From the NCBI GenBank assembly GCA_009784235.1, contig WRCC01000001.1:177506-241505 (forward strand): a DNA stretch of 64,000 nt. The letters run 5' to 3'. This stretch comes from Alphaproteobacteria bacterium. GTDB taxonomy: Bacteria > Pseudomonadota > Alphaproteobacteria > Rs-D84. Position numbers and translations under genes: made by a program. Positions within the stretch are counted from its first letter, which is position 1. Each line of letters starts with the position of its first letter. Of the stretch, positions 938 through 56,557 are shown piece after piece. The notes beneath the pieces were generated by a model. The model was not told where the DNA came from. It ran no database searches and saw only the letters and a list, made by a program, of their open reading frames with translations.

Positions 938-953
938 AAAAAAGGAGATTAAA

Positions 954-1358: not shown

Positions 1359-1389
1359 CCATTCGTGCTGAATATGATACAATGGGGCG

Positions 1390-2453: not shown

Positions 2454-2462
2454 GTTAGTATT

Positions 2463-3044: not shown

Positions 3045-3046
3045 TC

Positions 3047-3592: not shown

Positions 3593-3611
3593 ATTGGCCC
3601 CAAAACAACAC

Positions 3612-3688
3612 TGGCACGCCCGGCAGGATTCGAACCTGCGACCTGCGGATTAGAAATCCGATGCTCTATCCGGCTGAGCTACGGGCGC
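3612..3688 (-). tRNA. tRNA-Arg (anticodon TCT), CCA encoded
   Basis: Reverse complement folds as a cloverleaf: acceptor GCGCCCG/CGGGCGT, D-arm GCTC/GAGC, anticodon loop TTTCTAA, T-arm GCAGG-TTCGAAT-CCTGC, discriminator G, CCA. Confidence 0.9.
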
Positions 3689-3794
3689 GTGGGCGGATTA
3701 TATCGTGTGGCGGTCTGATTTGCAATTCATTTTTGATTGTTATCCTTATACTTGATTTTTGTGTATTTTTATCTATAATTGTGTTGCTGCGAAT

Positions 3795-4087
3795 GCAGAG
3801 ATGATGCTGAATGCTCTATGAAATAGGTCTTTTGGACTGGGGGGCGGTACCCCACAGCTCCACCACTTGGGGCTGACATAGTTTCGACAGGGATTGAAAG
3901 ATAGAGAGTGTATCCAGCGTTGCTGCTGTGAAAGGCTGAAACAAAATGAATGCGAATGACAACATCCGCGTTAACTATGCAATGGCCGCTTAATTGCGCC
4001 GAATGCAAGAGCCAATAGGTAATTGCATTCATGCCACATAGTTGGGGCTTTCCCGTGCGCCTGGCACCAGAAGCACGGGATTTTTTA
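3795..4087 (+). ncRNA. ssrA: tmRNA (ssrA), circularly permuted two-piece form. Acceptor piece ends at CCA at 3865. Coding piece starts GGGGCTGA at 3869. Tag reading frame is 3952-3993. The RNA is followed by a rho-independent terminator.
   Basis: Sequence ...GGAC-TGGGG-GGCGGTA-CCCCA-CAGCTCC-A-CCA at 3834-3865 matches the tmRNA 3' T-arm and acceptor layout. It is followed 3 nt later by GGGGCTGACATAGTTTCGACAGGG, the conserved tmRNA 5' end. The tag ORF GCGAATGACAACATCCGCGTTAACTATGCAATGGCCGCTTAA encodes ANDNIRVNYAMAA*. Terminator stem is CCCGTGC/GCACGGG (4052-4079) plus T-run. 3'-before-5' order is the alphaproteobacterial two-piece arrangement. Confidence 0.8.
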
Positions 4088-8810: not shown

Positions 8811-8869
8811 AAAAAATCCGCTTGCTTTGCCAGGCGGTTTTTTTATATCATATAGGAATAAAGGAAGGG
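8811..8869 (+). repeat. conserved 5' leader of giant protein gene 1 (hairpin, -10-like TATCAT, RBS AAGGAAGG); copy 1 of 2
   Basis: AAAAAATCCGCTTGCTTTGCCAGGCGGTTTTTTTATATCATATAGGAATAAAGGAAGGGATGTTG is nearly identical to 12624-12681 upstream of gene 2. Confidence 0.7.
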
Positions 8870-15600: not shown

Positions 15601-18540
15601 GCATGCCCAGGCGGCGGGTTCAGCGTCGGCGGCGATATTGGATTAGCACAATGTCAGCGCAGCGAACCATGCTATGACGGTGGTGGCGTTGGAAACTGGA
15701 TTTGCAGTCACACGTCCGGAACAACATACGACACCAATTGTGGACCAGTCTGCGAAATGACCGGATGCCCGGGCGGATATTATCTGGACAGCGGTACTTG
15801 CGTAATTTGCGAAGCGGGTAATTCATGTAAAGACAATGATAAAACGCCGTGTCCCGCAAACACATATTGTCCAACCGGTTCAATCGACCCCGCGCCGTGT
15901 CCGGGCGGCGGATTTGCACCCGCAGAATCGCACGACATAACGCAATGCTATTTGAATTGTCCGGCTGGTTCATTGCCATCCAACTGTGCGACCATTACAA
16001 ACGTCAACATGACCGTAAATCATACCGGCACGATGTATGCGACATGTTTGTATAATGTCACTGCAGATACTGGATTTACTGTAATTGGCAACGGCACCGC
16101 AACGCCAAGTTGCCAGCCGACTGGATACAACATCATATACAACGAAAATGGCGGAACATTGGGCGCGGGTACACCCGTTTCATTTAATGTGACCACCCTG
16201 CCCGTGACTTTGGTTGATGCGACGCGTGAATATTCTGAATTCATGGGTTGGTTTGATAATATGGCATTAACCGGCACGCGTATATTGAACATTCCAACCG
16301 GCACAACGGGCGATCAAGAATTCTGGGCCAGATGGACCTGCGCAGCTGGATATTACGCGCCTTCGCCAAACGCATGTGTCGAAGTAGATATCGGATATTA
16401 TTCGCCCGCCGGGAATTCCAATCGATATGCATGCCCGGCCGGATTCACAACAACAATCCGAATTGGTACTGATATACGTGCTTGTTACATGGACGAAGAA
16501 GCATCCGCAATTGATGCAAATTGCGATGGTGGACGTCGGCGTACTACACCGGGATTAACCACCGCAGGACCGACCGTTTGCGATGCGAACAATACATGTA
16601 CTTATGCATCCCAGCCAACGATTATGAACCCAACATATTCTGTGACACCGGGAACATCCATTACCGCACGCATCGGACATTATTTCGGCGGTGCGGGATT
16701 ATTGGCCGGTCCATCGATTTGCCCAGATGTGACCAGTGGATGGTTCAGTCCGGCGTTGACCGCCGATCGTACGCAGTGCCCGGCCGGATATGATGGTTCC
16801 GAGCCACCACGCGGCGCAAATACTGATTGCTGGATGAATTGCCCGGCAAAAAGCGGTCTAACTAACGTAACCTCTGTCATGCCTATAAATGAACGCGAAT
16901 TCTGGAACGGAACCACATTTGACACTTGTCTTTACGGTATTATGTGCAATCCAGGATATGCGCCAATCGGCGATGGCACTGCAAACCCAGCTTGCGAATT
17001 ATGCCCTAGCGGATATTACTGTGACGGTACCGGCTCTTATCAATGTCCCGAAGGATACAGAGACGGCGGCAGAGCAAAATCTATAACCGAATGTATGCAA
17101 ATTTGTGAAGATTATGTAATGGACCATGGTGTATTGGTCGCGACCGGAAATGTTTATTACGACAATGAATGTGAATATTCGTTGCATTGCGAATCTGGAT
17201 ATAAACGCGTTAATGGCCCAGGCGTGCCCGCAGCATGCGCATTGTGCGAACCAGGCGAATATTGTCCCGGTGGAACAGGCGGCGGTACTGCGTGCCCGGG
17301 CGGTGGAACATCGGATGCCGGTGCAGAGTCCGTGTCTGATTGCTATAAAATCGTGCCATGCCCGATTGCAAATGGAACCGGCGAACGCGTGTGCTATCAC
17401 ACATCTGGCACGACTTACAGCACGGATTGTGGTGTATGCACACTGACTGGGTGCGATACTGGATGGTTCCCCAACGGCAACGTATGCGGTGGATGTCCAG
17501 CGGGCAGCTATTGTGACGAGCATGGCATACATACTTGCCCAGACGGCGGAACAACCGAAATCGGCGCAACGTTAATTACCCAATGCTTTAAACTGTGTGC
17601 AAAACCCGCCGGAAATAATGGAACATTGACGATAACGCCAACGGCCGATTATCGGAATTATTGGAATGGTTCATCATACGCAGAATGTTCATTCGCAATG
17701 ACTTGCCGCAATGGATATACGCTGCGCAATAATAATTCGCCCGCACCGATGTGTGAAATTAGTTGCCAAGGCGCGTTTCATCCGTCACCGGATGGCGAAC
17801 GGTGCGAAGCAAACGTGCGTACGTGCACAATCGGCGCGTTGTCCGGATACCAAGAATGGATTGACGGCGAATGGACGGTCTGTAATGTTCAAGAATGCCC
17901 ACCAGACCAGGAAAAAGTCGGCGGCGCGTGCCAACCATGTAACCGCGAAAACGCAATAACATACAAAACAACCGGCAATTGCCAAGTTGCAACTTGCGCC
18001 AAAGGATTCCACCCCAGCGGCACAAAATGTAATCCGGATGTTATACCATGCGCACTGGCCAATACTGAAATCGCGGAAATGCGCTGGACCGGAACGACTT
18101 ATGGCCCGTGCACACCTGTGCGATGCCATCCTGGGTTCCACATTGCATCCAACGCGTGCATATCGAACGAACGAACCTGTACAGTCGAAAACGGCACTGG
18201 AACACAAACATGGTCTGGCGGCGCTTGGGGCGAATGCGTTGCGACATCTTGCAACCCAGGATGGACAAACGACCGCTTTGAAACAAATGAACATGCAAAG
18301 CAATGTGGTGCTTGCCGAAATAAATTCGGCGTATTCGGCGAAGTTGTGGCGACAAACTTTATAACAGAATGCCGGATTGCGTCATGCTTGCACCAAGGCG
18401 AATTGTACAACCTGGAAAATAACGAATGTGTACCGATTTGTGACCCGAATGGTCGCGATGATGAAACCGGCGCAATGATTTGGAATCGTACAACCAATAA
18501 ATGTGAACGGACATGTAACCCGGGATATATTATGTGGTAA
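12682..18540 (+). CDS. giant secreted/surface Cys-rich repeat protein, paralogue 2
   Basis: 1952 aa; homologous signal peptide (MLVKSPRFLRF...). Furin/GCC-like CxxCxxGxYC repeats. CPAGWIGTFNECTDNTNKTGCTRACTP module shared with gene 1. Three ~170-aa modules ending in a Listeria-Bacteroides repeat-like motif (YNIEYHPNGGTG...EFLGWF...FYAKWTC). EGF/laminin-like C-terminal repeats. Confidence 0.8.
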   Translation: MLVKSPRFLRFMLFAVFIAIGSVAHGATSEMYNCTRCYTACTAGSLCVNEIATGCAGTGATGTCNKCPTVVACSAHEWGTPGSCTACTAGQWPNAGNTGCQNCGAGWWCNGTAREQCPVNWRSNTAGNTTSQSQCARSCTTGDILNSATVSGTVACAPNGANCTDGTKSCTVTTCANGFYRTNSNTTCTACTNVPAGATPGAGTGPTSNCTWTRTCAAGTYWNNTTRDCQPCPADSYCPSNTNVSNTTSSDQGRTLCTDGWRNGTATGNTAQNQCVRNCSEQTIANGKLVPVNTTVNHPANCSFTTTCDSGFTASGDTCVAACSTTATCPAGWIGTFNECTDNTNKTGCTRACTPTNTVPNASATSCPAGTATFAAPTVCSTSCTATSCDADFFLMLGACPECPDGGNSPAGSTSHFACNISTECVLDSVRDPNATAETCTDGTNICNWSIADNGYTVCTGCLGSSCTSTSCEPGFYLNSGKCATCPAGKICTGGTNPPEDCPAGSSPNAAQTACVITSCPAGQYLDAGACVTCTAGYFCDATGRTACPDSGTSIAGAESVSDCYKICPAWTASNTVPTGCLRIDNYQLSVPWSVALDRYETCTFTPIELPGYDPIPATGNVTNPECELHIYNIEYHPNGGTGGMAVTSFTIEDLPITLGSPTRDNYEFLGWFIDSGFSGSAQSAIPAPPVFEYTDQVFYAKWTCAVNNYRDGTSCLPCPNGGTSAGGEIGVGSCSKSGLDCNDGTGGTGKQTCDWNAATSAYDLNCTACVISACPAGKYLTGGTCEDCTAGYFCDGEERVACPDGGTSSVGSTTAAACYKTCPAWTASNAIPDGCLRIDNYQTTVSYSIGLGAYATCTFTPVELPGYDPIPATGNVTNPECHLHIYNIEFHLNGGTGASTLPFSILDLPFSLPTSPAVSRANSDFLGWFDNAALTGTAIATIPSIGFDYSDKDFYAKWTCSENAYLNAGVCSACPGGGFSVGGDIGLAQCQRSEPCYDGGGVGNWICSHTSGTTYDTNCGPVCEMTGCPGGYYLDSGTCVICEAGNSCKDNDKTPCPANTYCPTGSIDPAPCPGGGFAPAESHDITQCYLNCPAGSLPSNCATITNVNMTVNHTGTMYATCLYNVTADTGFTVIGNGTATPSCQPTGYNIIYNENGGTLGAGTPVSFNVTTLPVTLVDATREYSEFMGWFDNMALTGTRILNIPTGTTGDQEFWARWTCAAGYYAPSPNACVEVDIGYYSPAGNSNRYACPAGFTTTIRIGTDIRACYMDEEASAIDANCDGGRRRTTPGLTTAGPTVCDANNTCTYASQPTIMNPTYSVTPGTSITARIGHYFGGAGLLAGPSICPDVTSGWFSPALTADRTQCPAGYDGSEPPRGANTDCWMNCPAKSGLTNVTSVMPINEREFWNGTTFDTCLYGIMCNPGYAPIGDGTANPACELCPSGYYCDGTGSYQCPEGYRDGGRAKSITECMQICEDYVMDHGVLVATGNVYYDNECEYSLHCESGYKRVNGPGVPAACALCEPGEYCPGGTGGGTACPGGGTSDAGAESVSDCYKIVPCPIANGTGERVCYHTSGTTYSTDCGVCTLTGCDTGWFPNGNVCGGCPAGSYCDEHGIHTCPDGGTTEIGATLITQCFKLCAKPAGNNGTLTITPTADYRNYWNGSSYAECSFAMTCRNGYTLRNNNSPAPMCEISCQGAFHPSPDGERCEANVRTCTIGALSGYQEWIDGEWTVCNVQECPPDQEKVGGACQPCNRENAITYKTTGNCQVATCAKGFHPSGTKCNPDVIPCALANTEIAEMRWTGTTYGPCTPVRCHPGFHIASNACISNERTCTVENGTGTQTWSGGAWGECVATSCNPGWTNDRFETNEHAKQCGACRNKFGVFGEVVATNFITECRIASCLHQGELYNLENNECVPICDPNGRDDETGAMIWNRTTNKCERTCNPGYIMW

Positions 18541-18921: not shown

Positions 18922-19173
18922 TTAATTCGCGCCCTGCTTTTTGGCAGATTCAAGCGCGACCAGCAGCGCAGTTTTCGCAATTTCGCGGATTTTTGGGGCA
19001 AATGCGCGCATATTCATTTGGTCTGCAACCGCATTGCCAAATGTCGTTGCGATATAATCAATTTGGGTTGGCGCAATCACATGAACTTTGGATGTAATTT
19101 GTTCGGGTGTCAGCCGAACCGTTTTATCAATATTTTTTTGTGTTCTGTCCATTGAATTTTGCCTTTGCCGCAC
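18922..19173 (-). CDS. hypothetical small protein
   Basis: 83-aa ORF between rnpB and secA; plausible helical protein, no recognisable motif; overlapping plus-strand ORF looks like noise. Confidence 0.3.
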   Translation of the reverse strand: MRQRQNSMDRTQKNIDKTVRLTPEQITSKVHVIAPTQIDYIATTFGNAVADQMNMRAFAPKIREIAKTALLVALESAKKQGAN

Positions 19174-19261
19174 TATAACATTTTACGGAAAGGATTGCAA
19201 ATTTATTGACTTTATGCGGTTAATTTTGTATATCTCTCATCTGACGAAAAAGGATTTATTT

Positions 19262-21928
19262 ATGTTGATGAAAATTGTGCGCAAAGTTGTTGGTAATGCA
19301 AATGACCGGATTGTTAAATCTTATGATAAAACTGTGTCGTTGATTAATGACTTGGAACAAAGATATCACGCCATGACAGATGAACAATTGCGCGGCGTGA
19401 CCGCGGAACTGCGCGCGAAATTGGCCGATGGTGCATCTGAAAAATCAATCCTGGGCGACGCATTTGCCGCAGTTCGCGCAGCATCCATTCGCACCACCGG
19501 CATGCGACATTTCAATGTCCAGATGATTGGCGGTATGGTTCTGAACAACGGCCAGATTTGCGAAATGAAAACCGGCGAAGGTAAAACACTGGTCGCAACT
19601 TTGGCGCTGTATTTAAAGGCTCTGCATGGCCGTGGTGCCCATTTGGTCACCGTTAATGACTATCTGGCCGCACGTGACGCAAAATGGATGGGCGTTATTT
19701 ACGAAGCATTGGGTATGAGCGTCGGCATTATTCAACACGAAATGACCGACGATGCGCGACGCGAAGCATATGCATGCGATATTACATACGTTACAAACTC
19801 TGAATTGGGTTTTGATTATCTGCGCGATAATATGAAATTTTCCAAAGAACAACAGGTTCTGCGTCCGTTTTTCTATGCCATCGTTGATGAAGTGGACAGC
19901 ATTTTAATCGACGAAGCACGTACGCCGCTGATTATATCCGGCCCGGCCGAAGATACCAGCGAACTGTACAATAAAATCGATACTATTGTTTTGCAATTGG
20001 GTGCGACCGATTGGAAAAAAGATGAAAAAGACCGCCATGTCACACTGACTGAAATCGGCACGGATACTGCGACCACTCTGTTGCGTGATGCCGGAATGCT
20101 GGTTGGCGATAACCTGTACGCGCCGGAAAATGCTGCGTTGGTTATGCATTTGCAACAATCTTTGTTGGCGCATCATTTATTCAAAAAAGAAGTCAATTAC
20201 GTTGTACGCGGCGGCGAAGTTTTAATTGTTGATGAATTCACCGGCCGCGTTATGACCGGTCGTCGTTTCAGCAAGGGATTGCACCAAGCATTGGAAGCCA
20301 AAGAGCACGTCGCAATTCAACCAGAAAATCAAACCGTATCGTCGATTTCGTATCAAAATTTGTTCCGCTTGTATCCGACATTATCGGGTATGACTGGAAC
20401 CGCAATGACCGAAGCCGCGGAATTCGAAGAAATTTATAGCCTGCGCGTTGTATCGATTCCAACGAACCGTCCCGTTGCACGTGTTGATCATCATGATGAA
20501 ATTTATCGTTCGAAATCTGAAAAATTTGCGGCGATTTTGGACGTTCTGCGCGATTGCCAAAAACGTGGCCAACCAGTCTTGGTCGGCACAGTATCGATTG
20601 AAAAATCCGAAGAACTGGCCGAAGTTGTGGAAAAAGAATTAAAAATTAAACCCGCTGTACTTAACGCAAAACATCACCAGAACGAAGCAAAAATTGTTGC
20701 CCAAGCCGGTGCACCCGGCGCGGTTACAATCGCAACAAACATGGCTGGCCGCGGAACAGATATTAAATTGGGTGGTAATGCAGAGGCATTGATTGATGAA
20801 TTAGATAAAGAATTATCAGCATCAGATTTGGATGCCCGTAAAAAAGAAATTTATGAAAAAATCGAGGCCGATAAAATCAAAGTTTTAAATGCTGGTGGAT
20901 TATACGTCATCGGTACCGAACGTCATGAATCCCGGCGCATCGATAACCAATTGCGCGGACGCAGCGGACGTCAAGGCGACCCTGGTGATTCGAAATTCTT
21001 TCTGGCGCTGGATGATGATTTGATGCGTATTTTTGGCGCAGCAAGGTTGGATGGCATGTTGGCGACACTTGGCCTGAAATCTGGCGAAGCAATCATGCAT
21101 CCGTGGATTACCAAAGCATTGGAAAAAGCGCAAAAACGCGTCGAAGCGCGATACTTTGAATCGCGTAAAGAACTGTTGAAATACGATAACGTTATGAATG
21201 AACAGCGTGTCGTTGTTTATAAACAGCGTAACGATTTGATGACGGCTGATAACCTGCGCCCATTCGCCGAAGAAATTATGAACGATGTTGTTGAACAAAT
21301 CTGCGAAATAAATATTCCAGAAAAATCACATCCGGATGCATGGAACATGACGGGCATCCATGATGCAATGCTGCGCACTTTCGGTGTGGATATTACCGAT
21401 TTGGACGATTGGAAGAAAGATGAAAACATCAGCGAGCGCAAGGCTTTTGATGGCCTGATGCGATTGGCACGCCAGCGTTATGAATATCAATTAAATCGAT
21501 ATGGTCCAGAATTGATGTTGCAAGCCGAACGTCAAACCGCGCTGCATTCATTGGATGCATCTTGGCGCAAACATTTGGCGAATATGGATTTCTTGCAGAC
21601 TGGCATTGGATTGCGCGGATATGCACAAAAAAATCCATTGTATGAATACAAACGTGAGGCGTTCGAATTATTCCGTAATATGATGTATGGATTTAAACAG
21701 ATGGCGCTGACATATATATGTCGTATGGAATTATCGCGTGAAGAAATCGATGATATGAAGCATGAACACGAACAACGCGATGCATCATTGAACGCAGCAG
21801 CAACTGCTGGTAACGGCGACTGGACACCCGGTGGTAACCTGGCGCTGGCGGACAAGCCTGCACGAAACGATATATGCGGTTGCGGCAGCGGTAAAAAATA
21901 TAAACACTGTTGTGGGAAATTGAAATAA
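19262..21928 (+). CDS. secA: preprotein translocase ATPase SecA
   Basis: Canonical N-terminus MLMKIVRKVVGNANDRIVK. DEAD motor motifs (MKTGEGKT, VDEVDSILIDEARTPLIISG). C-terminal zinc finger CGCGSGKKYKHCCG. Start moved to ATG 19262 (track ORF began at an upstream alternative start). Confidence 0.9.
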   Translation: MLMKIVRKVVGNANDRIVKSYDKTVSLINDLEQRYHAMTDEQLRGVTAELRAKLADGASEKSILGDAFAAVRAASIRTTGMRHFNVQMIGGMVLNNGQICEMKTGEGKTLVATLALYLKALHGRGAHLVTVNDYLAARDAKWMGVIYEALGMSVGIIQHEMTDDARREAYACDITYVTNSELGFDYLRDNMKFSKEQQVLRPFFYAIVDEVDSILIDEARTPLIISGPAEDTSELYNKIDTIVLQLGATDWKKDEKDRHVTLTEIGTDTATTLLRDAGMLVGDNLYAPENAALVMHLQQSLLAHHLFKKEVNYVVRGGEVLIVDEFTGRVMTGRRFSKGLHQALEAKEHVAIQPENQTVSSISYQNLFRLYPTLSGMTGTAMTEAAEFEEIYSLRVVSIPTNRPVARVDHHDEIYRSKSEKFAAILDVLRDCQKRGQPVLVGTVSIEKSEELAEVVEKELKIKPAVLNAKHHQNEAKIVAQAGAPGAVTIATNMAGRGTDIKLGGNAEALIDELDKELSASDLDARKKEIYEKIEADKIKVLNAGGLYVIGTERHESRRIDNQLRGRSGRQGDPGDSKFFLALDDDLMRIFGAARLDGMLATLGLKSGEAIMHPWITKALEKAQKRVEARYFESRKELLKYDNVMNEQRVVVYKQRNDLMTADNLRPFAEEIMNDVVEQICEINIPEKSHPDAWNMTGIHDAMLRTFGVDITDLDDWKKDENISERKAFDGLMRLARQRYEYQLNRYGPELMLQAERQTALHSLDASWRKHLANMDFLQTGIGLRGYAQKNPLYEYKREAFELFRNMMYGFKQMALTYICRMELSREEIDDMKHEHEQRDASLNAAATAGNGDWTPGGNLALADKPARNDICGCGSGKKYKHCCGKLK

Positions 21929-34230: not shown

Positions 34231-36552
34231 TTACATATAAACACACTTTGTCGGTTCGTTACATTTGTATTCATCGATTGCTGTCTGTGGCCATGATATG
34301 AAAACACATTTTGTGGGTTCATTACATTTGTATTCGTCTATTTTTGTCGCGTCGCTGGTTCTGCGTGCGCCACCGAAACTGTACCGAATACCCAATCGCC
34401 CGGATATTGCACGGAATACTTGGCCGTATTCGTATTGAGCGTCAAAATACATATATGACCGTTCGGACATGCCAACATTAAGGCCGGCTGTGACTTCCGC
34501 GCCAAATCCGGATACGTCGGATTTCATCGGCACGCCTTGAAAGTCAATTTTCGTCGCGCCGTCCCATTCGTTGTACAGACCCAGCTCTATAAACGGTCGC
34601 CACGTTGATTCACGCCCGGATGGTAAATATGTTGTTTGCAACGCAATTTTTGTTTCCACACTGCGCGTATTGCCGTATGTTATCAAGTCTGCAAAATTCG
34701 TTCTGTGGCTGTGTCGGCCACTGTGCGCAAAACGCAACTCTGCTTTTGGTTCCCATGCGAACATTGAATTTCCAGTGCGCATTTGCGCCCAGTTCGGCGC
34801 CACGCTGAACATCTGCTTGCCGCCTTCCAGGCTTGCTGTATAAAAATTCCGATTTGCGTCATATTCAACCCGATGTCCACCCGCAGTAATATTGGTCAGC
34901 GACATATTCGCCCAAAAATGACGCAGCGTCGCATCGGCAAACCATCCGGATTGACCCAACCACGTCGCATACAATCCAATTGTGGGCATACTGGTCTTGC
35001 CACTGCCGTCAAATGCGTTGGATTGTCTGATACGCTTGTCATTTGAATACTGATATCCACCCATTACGCCCAGGTACACGCGACCGTCGCCCGCAGGAAC
35101 ACGGAAATCAGCGCCGCCTTCGAACCCATACAGGTTCACGGTCGCATTGATATGTTCGTCCACTTCCATATGTCGTGCATATCCACGCGTCCAAACGCCG
35201 GGTTGTCCGGCACCGCCATCGGTGCGTAAATCGCCCAAGCGCACGCGCAGCTCGTTCATGCCGGCGCGAATCATGGCCAGATGCATCGCCGGAACGTTCG
35301 CAACTGTATTTCCGGTATCGGACATTCCAGGCCTGCCTTTTGGATTAAATGTAGTACAATTCCCAAATTCATCGCATTCGATGTCACCGGTGATACCACC
35401 ATTACCATTGACCAGGTACCAGTTATCATCATCTTTTTTAACCAGATACCAATTCAAAGGACCGGCATCCAGAACGCCTCCTTTCAGGGCAAATGTCGCA
35501 TCGCGTATGCTGGCATCCGAAGCATCTACAACCAGTACTTTGTGATTTAAAGTATTTTTAAAGCCGGTAGTGGTCATCATGCCGACAATCGTGTTTCCGG
35601 CGGACGCCGTATCCAGAATTTTCAAAACGTCCGACGAAATTCCATTGGTCTGCACAAATAAATTTGCGCCATCGGACATATAGTTGTTCAGCGTCAAAGT
35701 ATTAAACTGCGTTCCCGTGGCCGCACGCAAGCTGAGCGCAGAGCCGCCGTGCATATTCAGTGTGCCGGCCATGCTGGTGTTAAAAAATCGCAATGTCGCA
35801 CTGTCTGCCACGTCTGTGTTGCCCATAAAAAAATTATCGGAATACACATTTACCGCACCAACCATATGTTGGAAATCGCCGACATATCCGCTGTTTTGCG
35901 AATCTGCGCCGAAAACGATTGTGGACTTACCGTATTTTGACATTGTAACGGTTTCATCTTTGGAACGAATCCCGGAATTGAAATATATCGTGCCGCTGTT
36001 GCCGTTTATCGACATATCCGTGCCTGCGGCCAGATATATGTCATTAAGGCCACCGCCGTCACGATTGTTTTCAAACGATATAACCCCGCCGGTTACGGTT
36101 AACTTTATAAATTGTTCTGCATATACGGCGCCGCCCAAGCCAAGCGATTCATTATTTCGAAATATTGTGTTGTTATCAATATTGAGGTGGGAATACCCAC
36201 CGCCGCCATGACTGTTTATCGCGGCGCCGTTGTCGGTTGTGAAAAAATTAACCATCGTCAAATTATTACCAACGGAAATGCTGCGCATTGCACCCGGTGC
36301 AGTGGATTGCAGCAATCCCGAATAAATCCCACCGCCATCCAGAGTATGCTGGTTGCCAACAATGGAAAAGTGATGATTGAAATATGTTGCGTCCGCGTCT
36401 GTAAAATTTTGCGTAAATAAAGCATTGCCAGCAAGTTCTATGATGCCAACGCCGTCAAGCAGTTTCGTCCGAAAAGAATTAAAATCGGCGGCTGCATCAA
36501 ATCCGGTCGCCATGGCGGTTACAACTGCGATAATTGAAATTTTTCTGCGCAT
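34231..36552 (-). CDS. autotransporter with Pmp-like beta-helical passenger and C-terminal beta-barrel; unusual ~47-aa tail with a tandem duplication
   Basis: Signal peptide MRRKISIIAVVTAMATG. GGA[IVL]/FxxN-type repeats (GGAVYAEQF, FENN). Barrel-like C-terminal region ending ...RLGIRYSF followed by an extra tail containing IDEYKCNEPTKCV twice (30-nt direct repeat at 34240-34330). Confidence 0.65.
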   Translation of the reverse strand: MRRKISIIAVVTAMATGFDAAADFNSFRTKLLDGVGIIELAGNALFTQNFTDADATYFNHHFSIVGNQHTLDGGGIYSGLLQSTAPGAMRSISVGNNLTMVNFFTTDNGAAINSHGGGGYSHLNIDNNTIFRNNESLGLGGAVYAEQFIKLTVTGGVISFENNRDGGGLNDIYLAAGTDMSINGNSGTIYFNSGIRSKDETVTMSKYGKSTIVFGADSQNSGYVGDFQHMVGAVNVYSDNFFMGNTDVADSATLRFFNTSMAGTLNMHGGSALSLRAATGTQFNTLTLNNYMSDGANLFVQTNGISSDVLKILDTASAGNTIVGMMTTTGFKNTLNHKVLVVDASDASIRDATFALKGGVLDAGPLNWYLVKKDDDNWYLVNGNGGITGDIECDEFGNCTTFNPKGRPGMSDTGNTVANVPAMHLAMIRAGMNELRVRLGDLRTDGGAGQPGVWTRGYARHMEVDEHINATVNLYGFEGGADFRVPAGDGRVYLGVMGGYQYSNDKRIRQSNAFDGSGKTSMPTIGLYATWLGQSGWFADATLRHFWANMSLTNITAGGHRVEYDANRNFYTASLEGGKQMFSVAPNWAQMRTGNSMFAWEPKAELRFAHSGRHSHRTNFADLITYGNTRSVETKIALQTTYLPSGRESTWRPFIELGLYNEWDGATKIDFQGVPMKSDVSGFGAEVTAGLNVGMSERSYMYFDAQYEYGQVFRAISGRLGIRYSFGGARRTSDATKIDEYKCNEPTKCVFISWPQTAIDEYKCNEPTKCVYM

Positions 36553-36646
36553 GATAATCCTTTCTTGTATATCTACATAGGATATCATACCCAAGACATT
36601 TTTCCAAGCCATGAATAAAATAACAGGGGCGGATGCCCCTGTTATA

Positions 36647-39286
36647 CTAGAACTTGTACTTTAACGTCAACATTCCGGTGTTATCCGCGTAACTTTCGCG
36701 GAAACGACCGATATAGTTTGCAGATATATCAACCGAATCCATCAGCGACATCGTGACACCTGCCCCGACTTCCAATGCTGTACGGTCCAATCCGCGGCCA
36801 GCGACCGTAACCACCGAACCATTCGCCATCGTCATCGTAGCAAATACATTGCTGGTCGAAAAGTCGTATGTCATGCCAACATATGCTTCGGGACGCAGTG
36901 CCAGGTTGCGTATTTTGTAATCATACGCGGCTTTGACACCCACGATACCGGTAAAGTAATCGGCTGTACTTTCGTGCATGTATGACCCAGTCGAATCCCA
37001 GAACGCCAGATTATCGACGTTGATATAACGCGCACCGAATTGCGGTACAAGCGCCAAGTTTTTCGTCGGCATCAGTTCATATCCAGTGACTGCTTGCATT
37101 GCGAATGTGTTCACGCTGTGTTCAGAGTTTAAAATTGTTCCGCCGATATTTCTATCTTCGTCATAATTGCTGAACGTATATGATGCGATACCATTAATGA
37201 ACCATTCCATCGGTTTGTATTCTGCGTATGCAAGCACGGAATTCGATTGGATTTTGGTTTCACGCGATGTTGGTGTGACTTTTGTATTCGTATGTGCATA
37301 CCCGATACCAAGCTTTGTCGAAGTTGTCACATTACTTTCCAAACCGCCCGCGACCCCCCATGATTTTGCATCAAATCCATTTTCACCGCGCAGGCGTGCA
37401 TCGTTGGCCAATCCTTGAGCCCAGATGGATATTTCACCGCGCTTGAAATCACCGGATGCCATACCACGCGTTGCGACGCCGCCGGCGAACCGTGTGCCGA
37501 CCGCATCAAAGACTTGGACTGCATGACTGTTCGATACATGTTGGATTTTCGGTGCCGCACTGGGGCCATATCCGGATACAGCCAACAATCCAGCCGCAAC
37601 AACCGCGTCGTCATCGTGGTGCAACATATCCATTATATTATCCCACATGGCATCAAATGCCGCGTGGCCGGATTTGTCGCCACCAATCAGTCCGTTGATG
37701 ATTGCTTGCTGGTTTGCATTTGCACCAATTGCACCGGCATTCACAAACATATCGAATTGACCGTTGCCCAGATAGACCAAGTTATGTTTGCCGCCGAACG
37801 TATCGACTGAATCAAAATCGCCAACAAAGTTATCAACGTCGAACAATTGCAATCCGCGACCATAAAGTCCGCCGCCGACATTCAGAAACAAATTGTTGTT
37901 GCCGCCGGATAAATCAATCGTACCGCCTTGGATAACCGTTGTGCCGTATTTAACGACCAGGTCAACATTTGTAAATGCGATATCGCCTGTACCACTGATA
38001 CCACCGTCAAACGATACTGTGCCATTTTCAAATGCCAGCAAGCCACCGTTTTCGATATCATTCAAAATACCGCCGGCATAATTGTTTTCAAATAAAACAT
38101 CGCCAGTGAACAACATATCGCCCCAGTTATGAATTGCACCGCCGTCGCCGGATGCAGTATTGTTGCGGAATATCGCGCCGTCGCCGATTGTTACGTCCGA
38201 ACCACCATTTGCAATCGCACCGCCGACAGATGCGCTGTTACCGTCGAACAATGCATTTGCGCCGATATCTGTGTTCATGTATTCCAGATACATCGCACCG
38301 CCGGCACCAACGCCCGGTGCAACACCATTCGATTGGTTACCAATAAAGCGCGCGCCATTGCCGATAATCAAATCACCATTGCGTGCGTATATTGCACCAC
38401 CGGCATCACCGGTTGCTGTGTTGCCGCCGAACAATGCATCATCGCCGATTTCCAGTGAACCGCTGGATGAAAATATTGCGCCGCCGGCGTATGCTTCGTT
38501 CAACGAGAATTCTGCATCATCACCGATTGTAAGATCGCCGGTGTTATTTATCGCACCGCCAAATCCGAATGCGCCGGTTGCTTTGTTGCCGACAAACTTC
38601 GCACCGTTTGCAATATTCAAGAATGCAACACCGCCCCAATTTGAATTATGTATCGCGCCGCCGTTCAAACCGCGGTTGCCCGAAAACAAAGCATTGTCGC
38701 CAATATTTATTATGCCATCAAAACTGGTAATTGCGCCGCCATTTGCCAATGCAGTGTTGTTTGAAAATATCACATCATCGCCGATTTGTGTTATCGCCGC
38801 TGGGTCAAAATTATTCCATACGTAAATTGCGCCGCCGCTGGATGTTGATGTGTTGCCAGAAAATTCAACACCGTTTTCAATGTTCACATTAACGCCGTCC
38901 AGATACAGAACACCGCCGCGGCTGGCCGCAACATTATCTCTGAATTTTACGCCGTCTTTGATGGTTAATTTGCCCGAACCGACCGCGCTGTCCATATATA
39001 TCACACCACCGGATTCCAGCGATGTATTATCGTCAAATTCCAGTCCAGAGTTTATTGTTACATCTTTTCCATTGCTGGCTTCGATTGCGCCACCATGTGG
39101 GCCCGTTTGTCCGGATATTCCATCCACAATTATGACGGGTGCGCCGCCACCCACGACAATTCGTGCCGCATTTGCAGGTGCCGCCAATGACAATGACGCC
39201 ATCAACGCGCACGGCAGCGCGCATTTGCGCAAAGCAACGCGATATTGATTCGACAATTCTTTGATTGCTGTTTTTGATTGTTTCAT
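36647..39286 (-). CDS. polymorphic-membrane-protein (Pmp)-type autotransporter
   Basis: At least 12 GGA[IVL] motifs (GGAIYVW, GGAIHNS, GGAIFSS, GGAIYAR...) alternating with FxxN (FSGN, FVGN, FIGN, FDGN, FENN). C-terminal ~300-aa beta-barrel ending ...MLTLKYKF. Confidence 0.8.
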   Translation of the reverse strand: MKQSKTAIKELSNQYRVALRKCALPCALMASLSLAAPANAARIVVGGGAPVIIVDGISGQTGPHGGAIEASNGKDVTINSGLEFDDNTSLESGGVIYMDSAVGSGKLTIKDGVKFRDNVAASRGGVLYLDGVNVNIENGVEFSGNTSTSSGGAIYVWNNFDPAAITQIGDDVIFSNNTALANGGAITSFDGIINIGDNALFSGNRGLNGGAIHNSNWGGVAFLNIANGAKFVGNKATGAFGFGGAINNTGDLTIGDDAEFSLNEAYAGGAIFSSSGSLEIGDDALFGGNTATGDAGGAIYARNGDLIIGNGARFIGNQSNGVAPGVGAGGAMYLEYMNTDIGANALFDGNSASVGGAIANGGSDVTIGDGAIFRNNTASGDGGAIHNWGDMLFTGDVLFENNYAGGILNDIENGGLLAFENGTVSFDGGISGTGDIAFTNVDLVVKYGTTVIQGGTIDLSGGNNNLFLNVGGGLYGRGLQLFDVDNFVGDFDSVDTFGGKHNLVYLGNGQFDMFVNAGAIGANANQQAIINGLIGGDKSGHAAFDAMWDNIMDMLHHDDDAVVAAGLLAVSGYGPSAAPKIQHVSNSHAVQVFDAVGTRFAGGVATRGMASGDFKRGEISIWAQGLANDARLRGENGFDAKSWGVAGGLESNVTTSTKLGIGYAHTNTKVTPTSRETKIQSNSVLAYAEYKPMEWFINGIASYTFSNYDEDRNIGGTILNSEHSVNTFAMQAVTGYELMPTKNLALVPQFGARYINVDNLAFWDSTGSYMHESTADYFTGIVGVKAAYDYKIRNLALRPEAYVGMTYDFSTSNVFATMTMANGSVVTVAGRGLDRTALEVGAGVTMSLMDSVDISANYIGRFRESYADNTGMLTLKYKF

Positions 39287-39512: not shown

Positions 39513-40280
39513 ATGTCAAAATTTAAACAAATATTTCCATATAATTGGAAATCTGCGGCACTTGTATTACTGGCGCCAATGGCCATGAATTTCATGTGCC
39601 AAAAAAATCCAAACGAAAATCGTGATTTTCCCAGTTCTTGGAAACCACAACCAAAAGAACCGGTTGTTCAAACACACCTGGACACATTGCACCGCACCGC
39701 GCGCAGCAGAATAAATAGCGTGCACGGGGGAGAGCCTTATCTTAAAGACATATGGGACAGTGGCTTTTCTGTTGCCCAGAGAGAGCTTAATCTCCAAGGC
39801 AGTCTTTCTATGCGTGACACCTGTTTAGTCGCCAACACCGTGCTATATAAGCATGAGGGGGATGTGGGGATATTCCATATACGGTATTTTACAGAAAGAA
39901 ATGTCAACAATGCTATCGTGGCGAACAAAAACTATATGGATTATTGGCAGTTAAGAGAATATGCGAAAACAGCCGCAGGAATTACAATTGATAACACAAT
40001 CGACCGATGGTCGTGGGTTACGGGACTTCGTTTTGACAAGATTCATGAATGGCTGGCCATTAACAAATTGAACGGTATCGCGTTTACAAATTGGGTGAAT
40101 ACAGAGTTTCAAAAGAAAAGACAAGAATTTATAGATGCCCAGCTTTCCGCGCCAAAAGATGACCGCGATGTTCCTATGATTGGTACATACAGAATGTCCG
40201 ATTGTACCGGACTGAAAAGATATGACGCCCCATTTCCGCTTTGGTACGAAGTAAAATCTAAAGAACGCACATCGGCGTAG
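39513..40280 (+). CDS. hypothetical secreted protein (AT-rich region)
   Basis: 255 aa, N-terminal signal-like segment, no recognised domain; local GC is low. Confidence 0.4.
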   Translation: MSKFKQIFPYNWKSAALVLLAPMAMNFMCQKNPNENRDFPSSWKPQPKEPVVQTHLDTLHRTARSRINSVHGGEPYLKDIWDSGFSVAQRELNLQGSLSMRDTCLVANTVLYKHEGDVGIFHIRYFTERNVNNAIVANKNYMDYWQLREYAKTAAGITIDNTIDRWSWVTGLRFDKIHEWLAINKLNGIAFTNWVNTEFQKKRQEFIDAQLSAPKDDRDVPMIGTYRMSDCTGLKRYDAPFPLWYEVKSKERTSA

Positions 40281-40305
40281 CATCATGCGCGACGAAAATA
40301 TACAA

Positions 40306-40328
40306 GGGGCGCAAATATGCGCCCCTAC
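40306..40328. repeat. palindromic element, short form (GGGGCGCAAATATGCGCCCCTAC); bidirectional terminator between convergent genes
   Basis: Inverted repeat GGGGCGCA/TGCGCCCC; family member. Confidence 0.8.
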
Positions 40329-40347: not shown

Positions 40348-41352
40348 TTAACAACAGGCGTAACCACACGGTGGATTTTCATGGGTACAATCCATACACG
40401 TCGGCCAATCGCACGTCTCTAGTCCTTGATTCCAAACCGTGCCGTACGGGCATCGCATGCAGAATGGAAGTACTTCTGTGCCCCACCATCCGCTGTTGTA
40501 CGAACATATAATATATTCGTCACAATCAAACGGGTTTGCCATAAAGATACCCATAATATCGCCAATTCCGCCAGGATGCGGAGGGCACATGTCAACAGTA
40601 ATGGATTCTGGGTTGTGGCAAGGATTTGAAGGGAGTTCATAAATACATTGGTCACCTTCCATATAAAAATTCATAGCACATCGGGTCAGAGTACAATTAC
40701 CGCAAGGTTTTCCATCACCCGGACAGACTTGCTGGCGATGCGCACCTACTTCTATGGCGCTGCCGCATGGGAACAATCCGCGCTGGCATACGCATTTACC
40801 AAATGCTGAACTCCATTGCATACCAATGGGACACTTTTTACATGTCGCAACACCATTAACGCATTCATAATAAAAGAATCTGGATTGACATGCGCCCCAG
40901 CTGCCATCAGGTAACAATGCGGACGAGCAATTCAAAGTAGCGGGGTGCGAAAAGAATATATTTGATGCACCCGGCGGACAAGTTGGCGCGGTCGCGGCCG
41001 GGCAAGCGCCCGGCGAGGATAAGTCTATTTGCCAATCGCGGGCACAACTGGATGCTGGCGGTGTTGTGTCTGGGATGCATACGCCGTCGGATATGATGCC
41101 GCCGGGACAGCTTACAGAACATCCGCCCTGGAAATGATATGTGCCCAGATCATCTGTAAATGTTTGTGATTGTGGAACATTGCAAACCGAACCAAATTGC
41201 CAGATTAAATCCAAAGGATTCGGCGCAGTTGCAGTATTTCCAGTACTGGTATCAAAAGCAGGACAAGTTAAATTTAATGGACCAACAGCAAATGCAGACG
41301 TGACAAAGCACAGAGTACCCATCACAAACATGGATAGTATTGTTTTTTTCAT
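40348..41352 (-). CDS. secreted Cys-rich protein with C-terminal peritrophin-A (CBM14) chitin-binding domain
   Basis: Signal peptide MKKTILSMFVMGTLCFVTSAFA. C-terminal CPPHPGG...NPFDCDEYIICSYNSGWWGTEVLPFCMRCPYGTVWNQGLETCDWPTC fits the 6-Cys CBM14 consensus (C..G...P.DC..Y..C..G....C..G..FN....CDWP). Confidence 0.65.
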   Translation of the reverse strand: MKKTILSMFVMGTLCFVTSAFAVGPLNLTCPAFDTSTGNTATAPNPLDLIWQFGSVCNVPQSQTFTDDLGTYHFQGGCSVSCPGGIISDGVCIPDTTPPASSCARDWQIDLSSPGACPAATAPTCPPGASNIFFSHPATLNCSSALLPDGSWGACQSRFFYYECVNGVATCKKCPIGMQWSSAFGKCVCQRGLFPCGSAIEVGAHRQQVCPGDGKPCGNCTLTRCAMNFYMEGDQCIYELPSNPCHNPESITVDMCPPHPGGIGDIMGIFMANPFDCDEYIICSYNSGWWGTEVLPFCMRCPYGTVWNQGLETCDWPTCMDCTHENPPCGYACC

Positions 41353-41468
41353 GATCTCCCCCAGAGATATTTACCTATATTAAAACGTAAATAAAATTTT
41401 CAGTCAAGGGGTATTTATGATAATAATCGTATAAATTAAAACCGCCACATTGGCGGTTTGATTTTTTC

Positions 41469-41556
41469 TGGCGGAGATGAGGAGATTCGAACTCCTGATA
41501 CCTTGCGGTATACTCGCTTTCCAAGCGAGCGCACTAGACCACTATGCGACATCTCC
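41469..41556 (-). tRNA. tRNA-Ser (anticodon GGA), CCA encoded, long variable arm
   Basis: Reverse complement: GGAGATG acceptor, anticodon loop TTGGAAA, 12-nt variable stem-loop, T-arm CAGGAG-TTCGAAT-CTCCT. Confidence 0.9.
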
Positions 41557-54407: not shown

Positions 54408-55754
54408 ATGAAAAAACAAACAAACGCTTTATTCAAATTTCGCCCTTTGGCCAGAGTTGCGCCATTTATTGCCGGGACTATGCTGTTGGCCGCTTCTTGT
54501 GGCGATAAAAACAACGACGGCCCGAATAATCCGCCGGAAATTGAAAACCCGGTAACGCCCGGAAATATTTTCACAACTTTGGATAACGCTGTGAAAACAT
54601 TGAACGGAACCAATCCTCCGGCAAAGCTGGAAATAAATCTTGGTACGAACAGATTGGAATATAATGCTAATTTGGAAAAAGCCTTTGAAAATTTGGGACG
54701 CGCAATAGATAAAGCCGAAAAAACGCAAGTATCGATTGTCGGCCTGTCGGAAATTCATACCCCACAGGGCAGAAGATTAAAAATCCCAGTATCGGTCCTG
54801 AAAGCCACCAAGCAAAACATCGTAACGCGGAGCGGTACGATTACGGGTTATGTTTTCCTGAGCGGCGGAGAAATCCAGATTACAGGCGGCATTCCATACG
54901 GCGAAATCGATGAAATTGCAGGCATTGCCACTGGGACCAGGTCAGGCTCGAATATCGCGGAAAGGGCATCGTTGGTAATAATCGACAAATCTTTGATTGA
55001 CCAGGACGGAATACAAAACCCGATAACCGACACAACTTCCCCGTTAAAACACCTTGTGTCACAGGAATATAGAATACGCATTGACACTATGTATGTGGTA
55101 ATAAATGACCTGACCGAAGGCGAAAATAGAAAAATACACTCCTTTTTCTTGGGCACAACAATGGCCAGCGATAACAAAAAAGTTGTGGGGATGAATTTTG
55201 ACCGTCTGGATATTATGACGGTCAACGACCCGTTGCTGCGCGAATTGCAAATAAACGGCGGTCCGACGGTTACCGGAAAAACGCCGCGTATTGCCGCCGA
55301 CAAAGCGCCCAGATTCCCTGAATTCCGCGGGGATGAAATTCGGTTTGACAGCGGCGGCGGAATCCAGAACCTGACATTTTCGGCCCGGGAACATAAAAAC
55401 CGCGTCCGTTTATACAGCAGAACCGATACTGTTATCGAAATAAGCAGTCAAGGTTTGGGACTTGCAGGTAATCGTTGGGTTCTTGATTACTTCAAGCTTA
55501 TGGACTTCCTTTCTTATATCGATGTTGCGCCCGGCCATAAAATAATCGTCGGTGCACCATTGCTTGTCGGTACACCGGGTTATGATATCGGCGGTGGACA
55601 GATTGTTGAAAAAAGACCCGAAGTCTATTATCCCGAATTTGCCGCCCATAATAACACTTACGAAGTTTGGAATGCCAAAGGTGGACCAAAGTTTTGGCGG
55701 GATGGCGTTACCGCTGCGCTGGAAACAGTGGCGACGGTTGGGGTGGAAAGATAG
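54408..55754 (+). CDS. hypothetical lipoprotein (448 aa)
   Basis: Lipobox LAASC; beta-rich; no motif recognised; AT-rich locus with its own promoter. Confidence 0.5.
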   Translation: MKKQTNALFKFRPLARVAPFIAGTMLLAASCGDKNNDGPNNPPEIENPVTPGNIFTTLDNAVKTLNGTNPPAKLEINLGTNRLEYNANLEKAFENLGRAIDKAEKTQVSIVGLSEIHTPQGRRLKIPVSVLKATKQNIVTRSGTITGYVFLSGGEIQITGGIPYGEIDEIAGIATGTRSGSNIAERASLVIIDKSLIDQDGIQNPITDTTSPLKHLVSQEYRIRIDTMYVVINDLTEGENRKIHSFFLGTTMASDNKKVVGMNFDRLDIMTVNDPLLRELQINGGPTVTGKTPRIAADKAPRFPEFRGDEIRFDSGGGIQNLTFSAREHKNRVRLYSRTDTVIEISSQGLGLAGNRWVLDYFKLMDFLSYIDVAPGHKIIVGAPLLVGTPGYDIGGGQIVEKRPEVYYPEFAAHNNTYEVWNAKGGPKFWRDGVTAALETVATVGVER

Positions 55755-55798
55755 AAATAAATCTGTTTGTCACATTCGGGGTACAGGAGAGAGTTTTT

Positions 55799-56557
55799 AT
55801 GACAGCTTTTAACACACATCGTCCATCGTGCGCACATTTTTTGTCCGTATTGTTCACGGTTTTTGTTATGGTTGTATTCAGTGCACAATATGCTGATGCT
55901 GCGACGACGTGTGGCCCGGGGCAGAGGTTGTCCGCCGGCACTTGCATTGATTGTGGCAATGGATTTTACAAAACTGGAACCAACGCTAATACTTCATGTA
56001 CGCAATGCCCGGATATCAACGGCAACACAACCGGCAGCGGACCATTCGGTACAACCAGACGCACCACAGCCCAATTGATAAACGAGTGCTATTTTCCCAC
56101 AACGCAAGTTTTAACCGACGCCCAGGGTACTTTTAAGTTTGAATGCGACTGCACCAACGATGGTAAATGCCAGAGCGCTCTGCTGGAACACGGGGCGCCT
56201 TGCTCGAATGGCAACCAATGCGTATCTGGATGCTGCAACAGCAATGTATGCTCTGTCGCCACTGCATGCACGGGCGGTGGCAGCAGATTACCGGATGGTT
56301 CGGATTGCGAAAGCGATGTGCAATGCAATTCAAATATTTGCTGTGGTGGGATTTGTTCGACCGTATGTGGGGATGGTTGCCCTGCGGGCTACTGTCACCC
56401 TCAAAATGAAACCTGTTGCTGTATAGTTAACCTTCCTGGATGGGGGTGTTTGCAATACGGATGTGCGCCATTTGAAAACGCTACCTGTTGCGGCGAATGG
56501 GCATGTCCGAGTGGTTTTGTGTGCGGCAGTGATTATGGCGTTTGTGATATGCCATAA
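55799..56557 (+). CDS. secreted Cys-rich protein (furin/GCC-like CxxCxxGxYK start, many CC/CxC pairs)
   Basis: Signal peptide VLFTVFVMVVFSAQYADA. N-terminal CGPGQRLSAGTCIDCGNGFYKTGTNANTSCTQCP resembles the N-terminal modules of giant gene 2. Start moved to ATG 55799. Confidence 0.5.
   Translation: MTAFNTHRPSCAHFLSVLFTVFVMVVFSAQYADAATTCGPGQRLSAGTCIDCGNGFYKTGTNANTSCTQCPDINGNTTGSGPFGTTRRTTAQLINECYFPTTQVLTDAQGTFKFECDCTNDGKCQSALLEHGAPCSNGNQCVSGCCNSNVCSVATACTGGGSRLPDGSDCESDVQCNSNICCGGICSTVCGDGCPAGYCHPQNETCCCIVNLPGWGCLQYGCAPFENATCCGEWACPSGFVCGSDYGVCDMP

Follow-up and report, generated by a model that had tools for sequence, protein, structure and literature searches.

A bacterial protein with candidate insect-type CBM14 domains and an orphan N-terminal module, from a probable termite-gut alphaproteobacterium

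The CBM14 gene and its product

The DNA analysed here is a 64,000-nucleotide stretch of an alphaproteobacterial contig (WRCC01000001.1), called the window at its full length, and the gene in question encodes a protein of carbohydrate-binding module family 14 (CBM14). An earlier note on this DNA had read the gene as a secreted protein with a peritrophin-type chitin-binding domain at its C terminus. The open reading frame (ORF) is real and complete (Table 1), and its translation matches GenBank MCL2538055.1 exactly (labelled P0001 here), which is titled 'MAG: carbohydrate-binding module family 14 protein [Alphaproteobacteria bacterium]' (MAG, metagenome-assembled genome) and lies on a contig of 376,703 bp. 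That contig of the same MAG carries three paralogs, namely P0002, P0016 (527 aa, in a 90% cluster with MCL2538133.1) and P0045 (466 aa, MCL2538166.1). The CBM14 call itself is already part of the GenBank annotation and hence not new. Because the domain is annotated and bacterial cases were described in 2015, what the analysis adds is a termite-specific variant and a picture of where it occurs, rather than the finding of the domain as such.

The Pfam search that the note had proposed returned a significant match. A single Pfam-A family, PF01607 (CBM_14), matched the protein with 36.3 bits (E=6e-9; the gathering cut-off is 22.1). The match falls into two stretches, the better of which spans residues 270–322; among the paralogs, P0002 and P0016 scored 39.2 and 56.6 bits. 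In a 36-domain CBM14 alignment, the six canonical cysteine columns are held by C256, C277, C283, C301, C314 and C322 of domain 2, and the nearly invariant non-cysteine columns by P302, D315 and P317, with W316 completing the CDWP motif; W307-N308 is kept, and C298 (which forms a CxxC) and C319 are extra. The six-cysteine pattern that the note assigned to the C-terminal ~60 residues is therefore right for the domain core, while the stretch it quoted (residues 273–322) starts after the first canonical cysteine and contains seven. An AlphaFold2 (AF2) model of residues 249–334 reached a mean predicted local distance difference test score (pLDDT) of 78.7, with 84–94 in the core and below 50 over the last 10 residues. 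Its ten best Foldseek matches in the PDB were all CBM14 structures, headed by Avr4 (4Z4A, template modelling scores 0.62/0.71) and including a second Avr4 (6BN0), CHIT1 (5HBF and 6SO0), Der p 23 (4ZCE) and Blo t 12 (2MFK). A PDB profile search with the four paralogs matched only CBM14 proteins (Trichuris chitinase 6g9c, tachycitin 1dqc, Ostrinia chitinases, squid beak protein 7bwe, Avr4 4z4a, CHIT1 6so0 and Der p 23), and matches of domain 2 by phmmer and profile searches of PDB sequences included Avr4 and tachycitin. We are highly confident that the domain belongs to CBM14. P302 and W316 align with P451 and W465 of CHIT1, and D315 and W316 with D102 and Y103 of CfAvr4, which are described as chitin-binding residues (PMC6128652).

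The remainder of the chain is rich in cysteine as well (34 in the full chain, 33 in the mature one). The putative signal peptide, judged by eye and by a hydropathy scan, consists of MKK, a 16-residue hydrophobic core and an AFA–VG junction, a layout found in all four paralogs; the description of the protein as secreted is thus borne out as far as the Sec signal reaches, and export past the periplasm would be a further step. The N-terminal module (N-module) that follows has the pattern TCPxFDxxTGNTAxxPNPL...VCNxPxxQxFTDxLGT...C...C...GVCI. Domain 1 has cysteines at C117, C125, C155, C164, C171, C174, C187 and C189, and an 18-aa insertion that contains C142. No Pfam family matched the linker (residues 190–255), no NCBIfam model matched the protein, and no Autotransporter domain was found in it by Pfam, unlike in its neighbours at 34231–36612 and 36647–39286.

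With its own ribosome-binding site (RBS) and terminator, the CBM14 gene is independently transcribed; around it on the 376,703-bp contig lie L25, tRNA-Ser, PBP5 and autotransporter genes. The palindromic elements that the note had pointed out at its flanks do exist, and we rejected them as ends of a mobile element because the terminator scan shows them to be ordinary intrinsic terminators, with no signal of mobility. Similarly, the neighbouring gene at 39513–40280 is slightly richer in AT (42.7% GC), lying only about 4 points below the window (46.5%; CBM14 gene, 47.8%), which again is no sign of mobility. This neighbour is not significantly similar to the genes that adjoin the paralogs and was rejected on that ground as a conserved partner of the CBM14 family.

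Table 1. Coordinates of the CBM14 gene, the parts of its product and other features of the window
Feature	Position	Strand	Details and basis
CBM14 gene	40348..41352	minus	ATG start, complete ORF, 334 aa; ORF list
Shine-Dalgarno sequence GGGGGAG	41356..41362	minus	6 nt upstream of the ATG; read from the sequence
Putative signal peptide, aa 1-22 (MKKTILSMFVMGTLCFVTSAFA then VG)	41287..41352	minus	Sec/signal peptidase I (SPase-I) type, without canonical lipobox
Orphan N-terminal module, aa 23-103	41044..41286	minus	Invariant columns in the four-paralog alignment
CBM14-like domain 1, aa 117-189	40786..41004	minus	Second Pfam stretch; divergent 8-Cys variant
Cys-rich linker, aa 190-255 (CGNCTLTRCAMNFYMEGDQC-type unit)	40588..40785	minus	Paralog alignment; no Pfam match
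CBM14 domain 2, aa 256-322	40387..40587	minus	Best Pfam stretch, 270-322
C-terminal tail, aa 323-334 (THENPPCGYACC), and stop codon	40348..40386	minus	Three more Cys, ends in CC
Bidirectional intrinsic terminator hairpin AGGGGCGCAAATATGCGCCCCT	40305..40326	both	Between the CBM14 gene and convergent gene 39513-40280; terminator scan
Terminator hairpin	41439-41459		Behind tRNA-Ser (41469-41556); terminator scan
Autotransporter, pertactin/autochaperone type	34231-36612	minus	Just upstream of the CBM14 locus
Autotransporter with chlamydial Pmp-type repeats (TIGR01376)	36647-39286	minus	In tandem with the gene at 34231-36612
Giant secreted protein	8822-12601	plus	1259 aa, 6.7% Cys; no Pfam match
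Giant secreted protein	12682-18540	plus	1952 aa, 8.7% Cys; Listeria-Bacteroides repeats (PF09479)
Cys-rich ORF	55667-56557	plus	296 aa, 12% Cys, signal-like hydrophobic segment; no Pfam match

A four-paralog family and an eight-cysteine variant of CBM14

When a profile of P0001 and P0002 was run against 1.84 billion representative proteins, only P0016 and P0045 further shared the N-module, and the approximately 290 other matches were multi-CBM14 proteins. Back-translated patterns of the module found no relative in 185,579 species-representative genomes, nor did the module match anything in Pfam, NCBIfam or the PDB profile search. Because no relative appeared among either the representatives or the species genomes, we regard the four-paralog architecture as a lineage-specific invention, and the orphan N-module family is not described in the literature that we found. 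A full-length structure prediction from the four paralogs gave a pLDDT of 42.7, too low to use for the fold of the module. In an independent ENA assembly, the family is split over two contigs, one with P0001 and the other with P0002, P0016 and P0045. The longer paralogs have the linker expanded into CxxC...G-aromatic...C repeats, and the repeat of P0016 compared with the ORFs of the window matched the giant cysteine-rich protein at 12682–18540 (BLASTP, E=1e-6).

The CBM14 domains of the family carry two additional cysteines that define what we call the 8-Cys variant: one lies three residues before the fourth canonical cysteine (C-x2-C-P-x-G), and the other, within a CPxGxxPxCP prefix, 5–11 residues before the first. 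Both domains of P0001 fit the full pattern (C117 and C171 in domain 1, C245 and C298 in domain 2), which domain 1 shares with domain 1 of P0002 and P0016, and both extra cysteines align with those of domains from Blattella, Periplaneta and a termite contig; domain 1 of P0002 and of P0016 likewise aligns with cockroach and termite-gut domains. Among the 150 best representatives, the variant occurred in Blattella germanica (PSN32382.1 and PSN39605.1), Periplaneta americana (XP_069691255.1), the caddisfly Arctopsyche, the two-domain protein P0139 of the insect-like termite contig described below, and a few unnamed proteins. Within a set of 67 bacterial CBM14 ORFs, it was confined to the termite-gut Rikenellaceae MAG Lab288P3bin194. 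When 241 million JGI metagenome records were scanned with a DNA pattern for the variant, 15 contigs matched, at least 10 of them from the termite-gut Ga0123352-57 series (Ga0123353 being Lab288P3) and the source of the other five not established; these contigs fall into mucin-like host genes and small bacterial-type proteins. As judged from these scans, the variant outside this genome appears restricted, among the bacterial sequences covered, to termite-gut contigs. IMG/VR held no contig with the CxxC pattern, and a phage vector is therefore unsupported. Neither the sharing of the variant with Blattodea nor its termite-gut distribution is described in the literature that we found.

Similarity searches with single domains pointed in the same direction. 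The best phmmer partners of domain 2 of P0016 were P0139 (61 bits), Rikenellaceae (60), Blattella (57) and Periplaneta (53) proteins, and the nearest match of domain 1 of P0002 was again from Rikenellaceae (48 bits). Domain 1 of the window protein is homologous to domain 1 of P0002 (38.6 bits), followed by P0139 at 26.6 bits. In 500 column bootstraps, domains from Blattodea or associated with termites, although only 23 of the 877 comparators (2.6%), were nearest to the six family domains in 25–75% of replicates, compared with 0.4–3% for 30 other bacterial domains. This result supports an insect-type origin of the CBM14 domains of the family, and the insect lineage is the most probable source of the modules, whether by direct transfer or by way of bacteria resident in the same gut. 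The variant is far more widespread in insects, from which we infer that transfer ran from insect to bacterium.

The habitat was traced through the paralogs. P0045 occurs unchanged in ENA assemblies ERZ27257295, ERZ27257297 and ERZ27257304 and in SRR10512951, and ERZ27257297 also holds a low-GC, sparsely coding, insect-like contig (L009) that carries the gene for P0139. That contig is 99.92% identical over 2,643 nt to WREZ01000214.1, and according to a table in PMC7886697, WREZ is MAG Lab288P4_bin25, which comes from the gut (compartment P4) of Labiotermes labralis, a termite that feeds on soil. Since an assembly with one of the paralogs shares a contig with this gut MAG, the window organism would be a termite-gut bacterium, an origin that follows from shared sequences rather than from sample metadata. 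Moreover, the SecA encoded in the window is 75–81% identical to SecA of uncultured gut Alphaproteobacteria, including 'Ca. Enterousia' and MAGs labelled Rickettsiales, and its best named relative lies on JAISCX01, whose JAIS prefix also belongs to the Gx481, Mx356 and Md513 MAGs, the last of which come from the gut of Mastotermes (PMC12483993). Taken together with the position of the domains nearest to cockroach, termite-host and termite-gut types, this trace supports the proposal in the earlier note of acquisition from, or adaptation to, an arthropod.

The location of a CBM14 domain in a bacterium is a different matter. The note had placed the pattern almost exclusively in arthropods, nematodes and insect viruses, which overstates its restriction. 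Fungi (Avr4), vertebrates (CHIT1) and molluscs have CBM14 as well. For bacteria, we scanned the species genomes with a degenerate DNA pattern for CPxGLx[W/F]Nx5CD, which hit 79 loci against about 17 expected by chance (an estimate from the information content of the pattern), and 57 of these encode CBM14 at E<1e-5 by a hidden Markov model (HMM) built from 153 domains, mostly eukaryotic, of the matches in the representative search. Ten sampled bacterial ORFs, from Nocardia, Chitinophaga, Flavobacterium, Streptomyces, Desmonostoc, a Polyangia MAG, a Methylococcales MAG, Culturomica, Dysgonamonadaceae and Odoribacter, all matched the curated Pfam CBM_14 at 31–62 bits. A standing product name for bacterial CBM14 proteins exists in the Prokaryotic Genome Annotation Pipeline (PGAP), and seven bacterial cases were reported in 2015 as putative inter-domain horizontal gene transfer (Chang & Stergiopoulos, as quoted in PMC5122149). 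Given this spread across bacteria, wider than the note supposed, the occurrence of CBM14 in a bacterium does not by itself imply an arthropod host, and the further evidence given above was needed.

Several further observations were made along the way. The Rikenellaceae MAG Lab288P3bin194 (Bacteroidota) contains tandem arrays of membrane-anchored CBM14 proteins of ~140–180 aa (L057 4021–5808 and L017 5871–7361, also on L029, L051 and L070), which adjoin dnaG on contigs of 185–351 kb and whose domains are 69% identical to the termite-host-like domain 1 of P0139; the case for host-to-bacterium transfer is stronger for these arrays than for the window gene itself. The insect-like contig L009 (ERZ27257297 k141_2736192), positions 565–3851, and its counterpart WREZ01000214.1 (L089) have frameshifted ORFs with a double-jelly-roll capsid-like domain (PF21738), which on L009 adjoin a gene for a protein with a signal peptide and two CBM14 domains, and L009 looks like an endogenous viral element in a termite genome. 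The presence of this contig in Lab288P4_bin25, a Bathyarchaeia MAG in which the CBM14 gene is annotated as archaeal, is probably host contamination. Almost certainly insect contamination under a RefSeq bacterial name is WP_458020247.1, a 48-aa CBM14 protein of 'Klebsiella pneumoniae' on a 263-bp contig, which clusters at 90% with Leptinotarsa decemlineata proteins (the P0069 cluster). Directly 3' of P0016 and P0045, at L001 661–876 and L005 11420–11644, stands a gene for a small lipoprotein (71–74 aa, lipobox LGAC/LTAC, 44–50% identical) that is not found 3' of the window gene or of P0002, and the same genome also encodes a LuxR/LuxI quorum-sensing pair (Autoind_bind and Autoind_synth, L005 12305–13842), situated ~1 kb downstream of P0045. 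In the window itself, a TTG start gives the SecA ORF (19088–21928, plus strand) 946 aa against 888 aa in GenBank, a difference in the annotated start only, and both giant proteins contain many C-x(2-5)-C-x2-G-aromatic-x(4-10)-C units, such cysteine-rich extracellular proteins being unusual for a bacterium; the ORF at 55667–56557 adds to this cysteine-rich secretome.

Possible function and origin

As a whole, the window protein is best explained, with moderate confidence on our part, as an exported, disulfide-rich chitin binder or adhesin-like protein of a termite-gut alphaproteobacterium, with CBM14 modules of insect derivation. It would be exported by Sec, acquire its disulfides in the periplasm and then be released or displayed on the cell surface, where the CBM14 modules may bind the chitin of the hindgut cuticle, of the peritrophic matrix or of fragments in the soil diet, so that the protein would act as an adhesin or as a tether to its substrate. 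The N-module would add a second function, possibly by anchoring the chain at the bacterial surface or on a partner protein, and the insect-type 8-Cys modules would have been duplicated into four paralogs in this genome after their acquisition. The proposed mechanism of chitin adhesion we consider about evenly balanced between right and wrong. Two autotransporter adhesin genes and two giant cysteine-rich surface proteins share the window, a context that fits a repertoire for surface interaction; none of these genes is conserved next to the paralogs.

Several points weigh against this explanation. A Sec signal leads only to the periplasm of a diderm cell, and neither a secretion system nor a surface anchor was identified. 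The cysteines of the mature chain are odd in number. Domain 1 by itself stays under the Pfam cut-off (13.3 bits, E=0.095), and, because a CBM14 alignment went into the AF2 model of domain 2, that model shows consistency with the fold but does not prove it independently. At positions concerned with the ligand, T313 stands in place of the key Trp100 of Avr4 and T305 in place of Leu454 of CHIT1. As to origin, the domains of the window protein itself have diverged furthest within the family: in phmmer, domain 2 matched best an Aedes peritrophin (30.0 bits) and, from a termite gut, a Culturomica protein (29.4), and Blattodea were nearest to it in only 22% of bootstraps. Furthermore, of the 150 comparator proteins only about 20 have a known taxon name.

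Under an alternative that is nutritional in kind, the protein binds dietary chitin from fungal or arthropod debris and tethers the cell or chitinolytic enzymes to it, rather than to host tissue. The host is a soil feeder, and both the Labiotermes host and its hindgut bacteria are reported to degrade chitin (PMC10018900); in addition, Nocardia, Streptomyces and Chitinophaga, which live freely in soil, carry CBM14, so a host surface is not required. The window protein, however, has no catalytic domain, no chitinase gene adjoins any of the four paralogs, and its immediate neighbours are adhesin-type autotransporters. We consider this alternative unlikely; it and adhesion to the host both rest on chitin binding, and nothing here separates them cleanly.

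A second possibility, appreciably less probable, is that these CBM14 folds bind something other than chitin, such as pectin, other glycans or polyphenols. De-esterified pectin is the ligand reported for a CBM14 protein of the fungal Avr4 family (PMC8104879), a CBM14-containing '25 kDa polyphenol-binding protein' (8in3) was among the best PDB profile matches, and the two threonine substitutions at chitin-contact positions point the same way. Nevertheless, domain 2 keeps CDWP, WN and the equivalents of the CHIT1 proline and tryptophan, and most characterised CBM14 members bind chitin.

Of similarly low probability is an old bacterial CBM14 lineage in which the two extra cysteines arose by convergence, with no insect-to-bacterium transfer. 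CBM14 occurs in many bacterial phyla, domain 2 of the window protein has no clear nearest group, and trees of domains of ~55 residues are weak. Yet the non-termite bacterial domains, so seldom nearest in the bootstraps, include none with the CxxC variant, the termite Rikenellaceae proteins share both extra cysteines as well as 69% identity with domain 1 of P0139, and the JGI contigs with the variant come largely from a termite-gut project. Mis-assembly or mis-binning of insect DNA into a bacterial MAG can practically be dismissed: such contamination does occur, as in the Bathyarchaeia MAG and the 'Klebsiella' fragment, but the gene stands at least 19 kb inside a contig of 226–377 kb among bacterial housekeeping genes, lacks introns, matches its host genome in GC, carries an RBS, a signal peptide and a terminator of bacterial type, was recovered independently by an ENA and a Logan assembly, and belongs with paralogs that occupy a second contig in the former and share one contig with it in GenBank.

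Returning to insect-derived CBM14 modules, we tentatively propose, as a scenario with somewhat less than an even chance of being right, that the 8-Cys module moved from the insect host lineage into several unrelated termite-gut bacteria, namely Rikenellaceae and this alphaproteobacterium, and was there duplicated and fused to lineage-specific modules as host-specific adhesins, the window protein being a diverged member. If so, a eukaryote-to-bacterium gene transfer would have shaped gut colonisation, and the case would be a natural experiment in the re-use of an animal chitin-binding module. If the modules of this family and of the termite-gut Rikenellaceae proteins are host-derived and bind gut cuticle or peritrophic matrix, they would offer a molecular handle on how termite bacteria stay attached in a flowing, moulting gut. 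To our knowledge, lasting transfers from eukaryotes to bacteria are uncommon, and even fewer have a plausible role in colonising the gut of the donor itself.

Comparison with known CBM14 proteins

The closest counterparts in domain type are the insect 8-Cys peritrophins (PSN32382.1, PSN39605.1, XP_069691255.1 and P0139), which belong to the same domain family, share the CPxGxxPxCP prefix, CxxCPxGLxWN and FFxHP...W/FF/YxC...CDWP, and are the best phmmer partners of paralog domains (53–61 bits for domain 2 of P0016). They are, however, eukaryotic genes with tandem arrays of two to six domains joined by Pro/Thr-rich mucin linkers, whereas the window protein has an N-module, a cysteine-rich linker that is not mucin-like, and domains only ~30–36% identical to theirs. 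In view of its bacterial context and the lack of mucin linkers, it would act as peritrophin domains do without belonging to the insect peritrophin class.

Bacterial relatives differ from it in other ways. The Rikenellaceae proteins of Lab288P3bin194 (on L017, L057 and others) come from the same termite gut, have the 8-Cys variant and a Pfam CBM_14 match, adjoin dnaG and match domain 1 of P0002 at 48 bits and domain 2 of P0016 at 60 bits, but they belong to another phylum, measure ~140–165 aa and consist of one domain behind an N-terminal signal anchor, without the N-module. The CBM14 proteins of free-living bacteria (Nocardia, Streptomyces, Kitasatospora, Chitinophaga, Flavobacterium, cyanobacteria and myxobacteria) are likewise secreted and bear the same PGAP name, yet they are mostly single-domain proteins of 90–180 aa with plain six-cysteine domains, none has the CxxC, and they are rarely the nearest neighbours; with 334 aa, two domains, the N-module and extra cysteines, the window protein falls outside this small single-domain type. 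A secreted protein of 515 aa from another alphaproteobacterial MAG, 'Rickettsiales bacterium' Gx481_bin12 (L044 6161–7708, minus strand), is built along similar lines, combining a CBM14 domain with Ephrin_rec_like (PF07699) repeats, and its CxxC...G-aromatic cysteine-rich repeats resemble those of P0016 and P0045. The name of this MAG and its JAIS prefix match the termite-gut MAG series, but the CBM14 domain is N-terminal and of the plain six-cysteine kind, and the MAG is among the genomes without a match to the N-module. The gene is flanked by tatC and by an M23/LysM peptidase gene.

For a mode of action, small lectins offer the nearest analogy. Fungal Avr4 (4Z4A, 6BN0), which shields the fungus's own wall from plant chitinases, is the best solved match for domain 2 in sequence and fold; it too is secreted without an enzyme domain, and the D-W/Y pair is kept, whereas Avr4 has an extra N-terminal helix and its key Trp100 is a threonine in the window protein. 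Tachycitin (1DQC) is a small disulfide-rich invertebrate chitin binder that matched the profile at E=5.9e-6 over CPxG...CDWP...C and a C-terminal extension, although it is eukaryotic, has only one domain and, at 73 aa, is an antimicrobial peptide of haemocytes. By analogy with these two proteins, the window protein would work like a lectin of the Avr4 or tachycitin kind.

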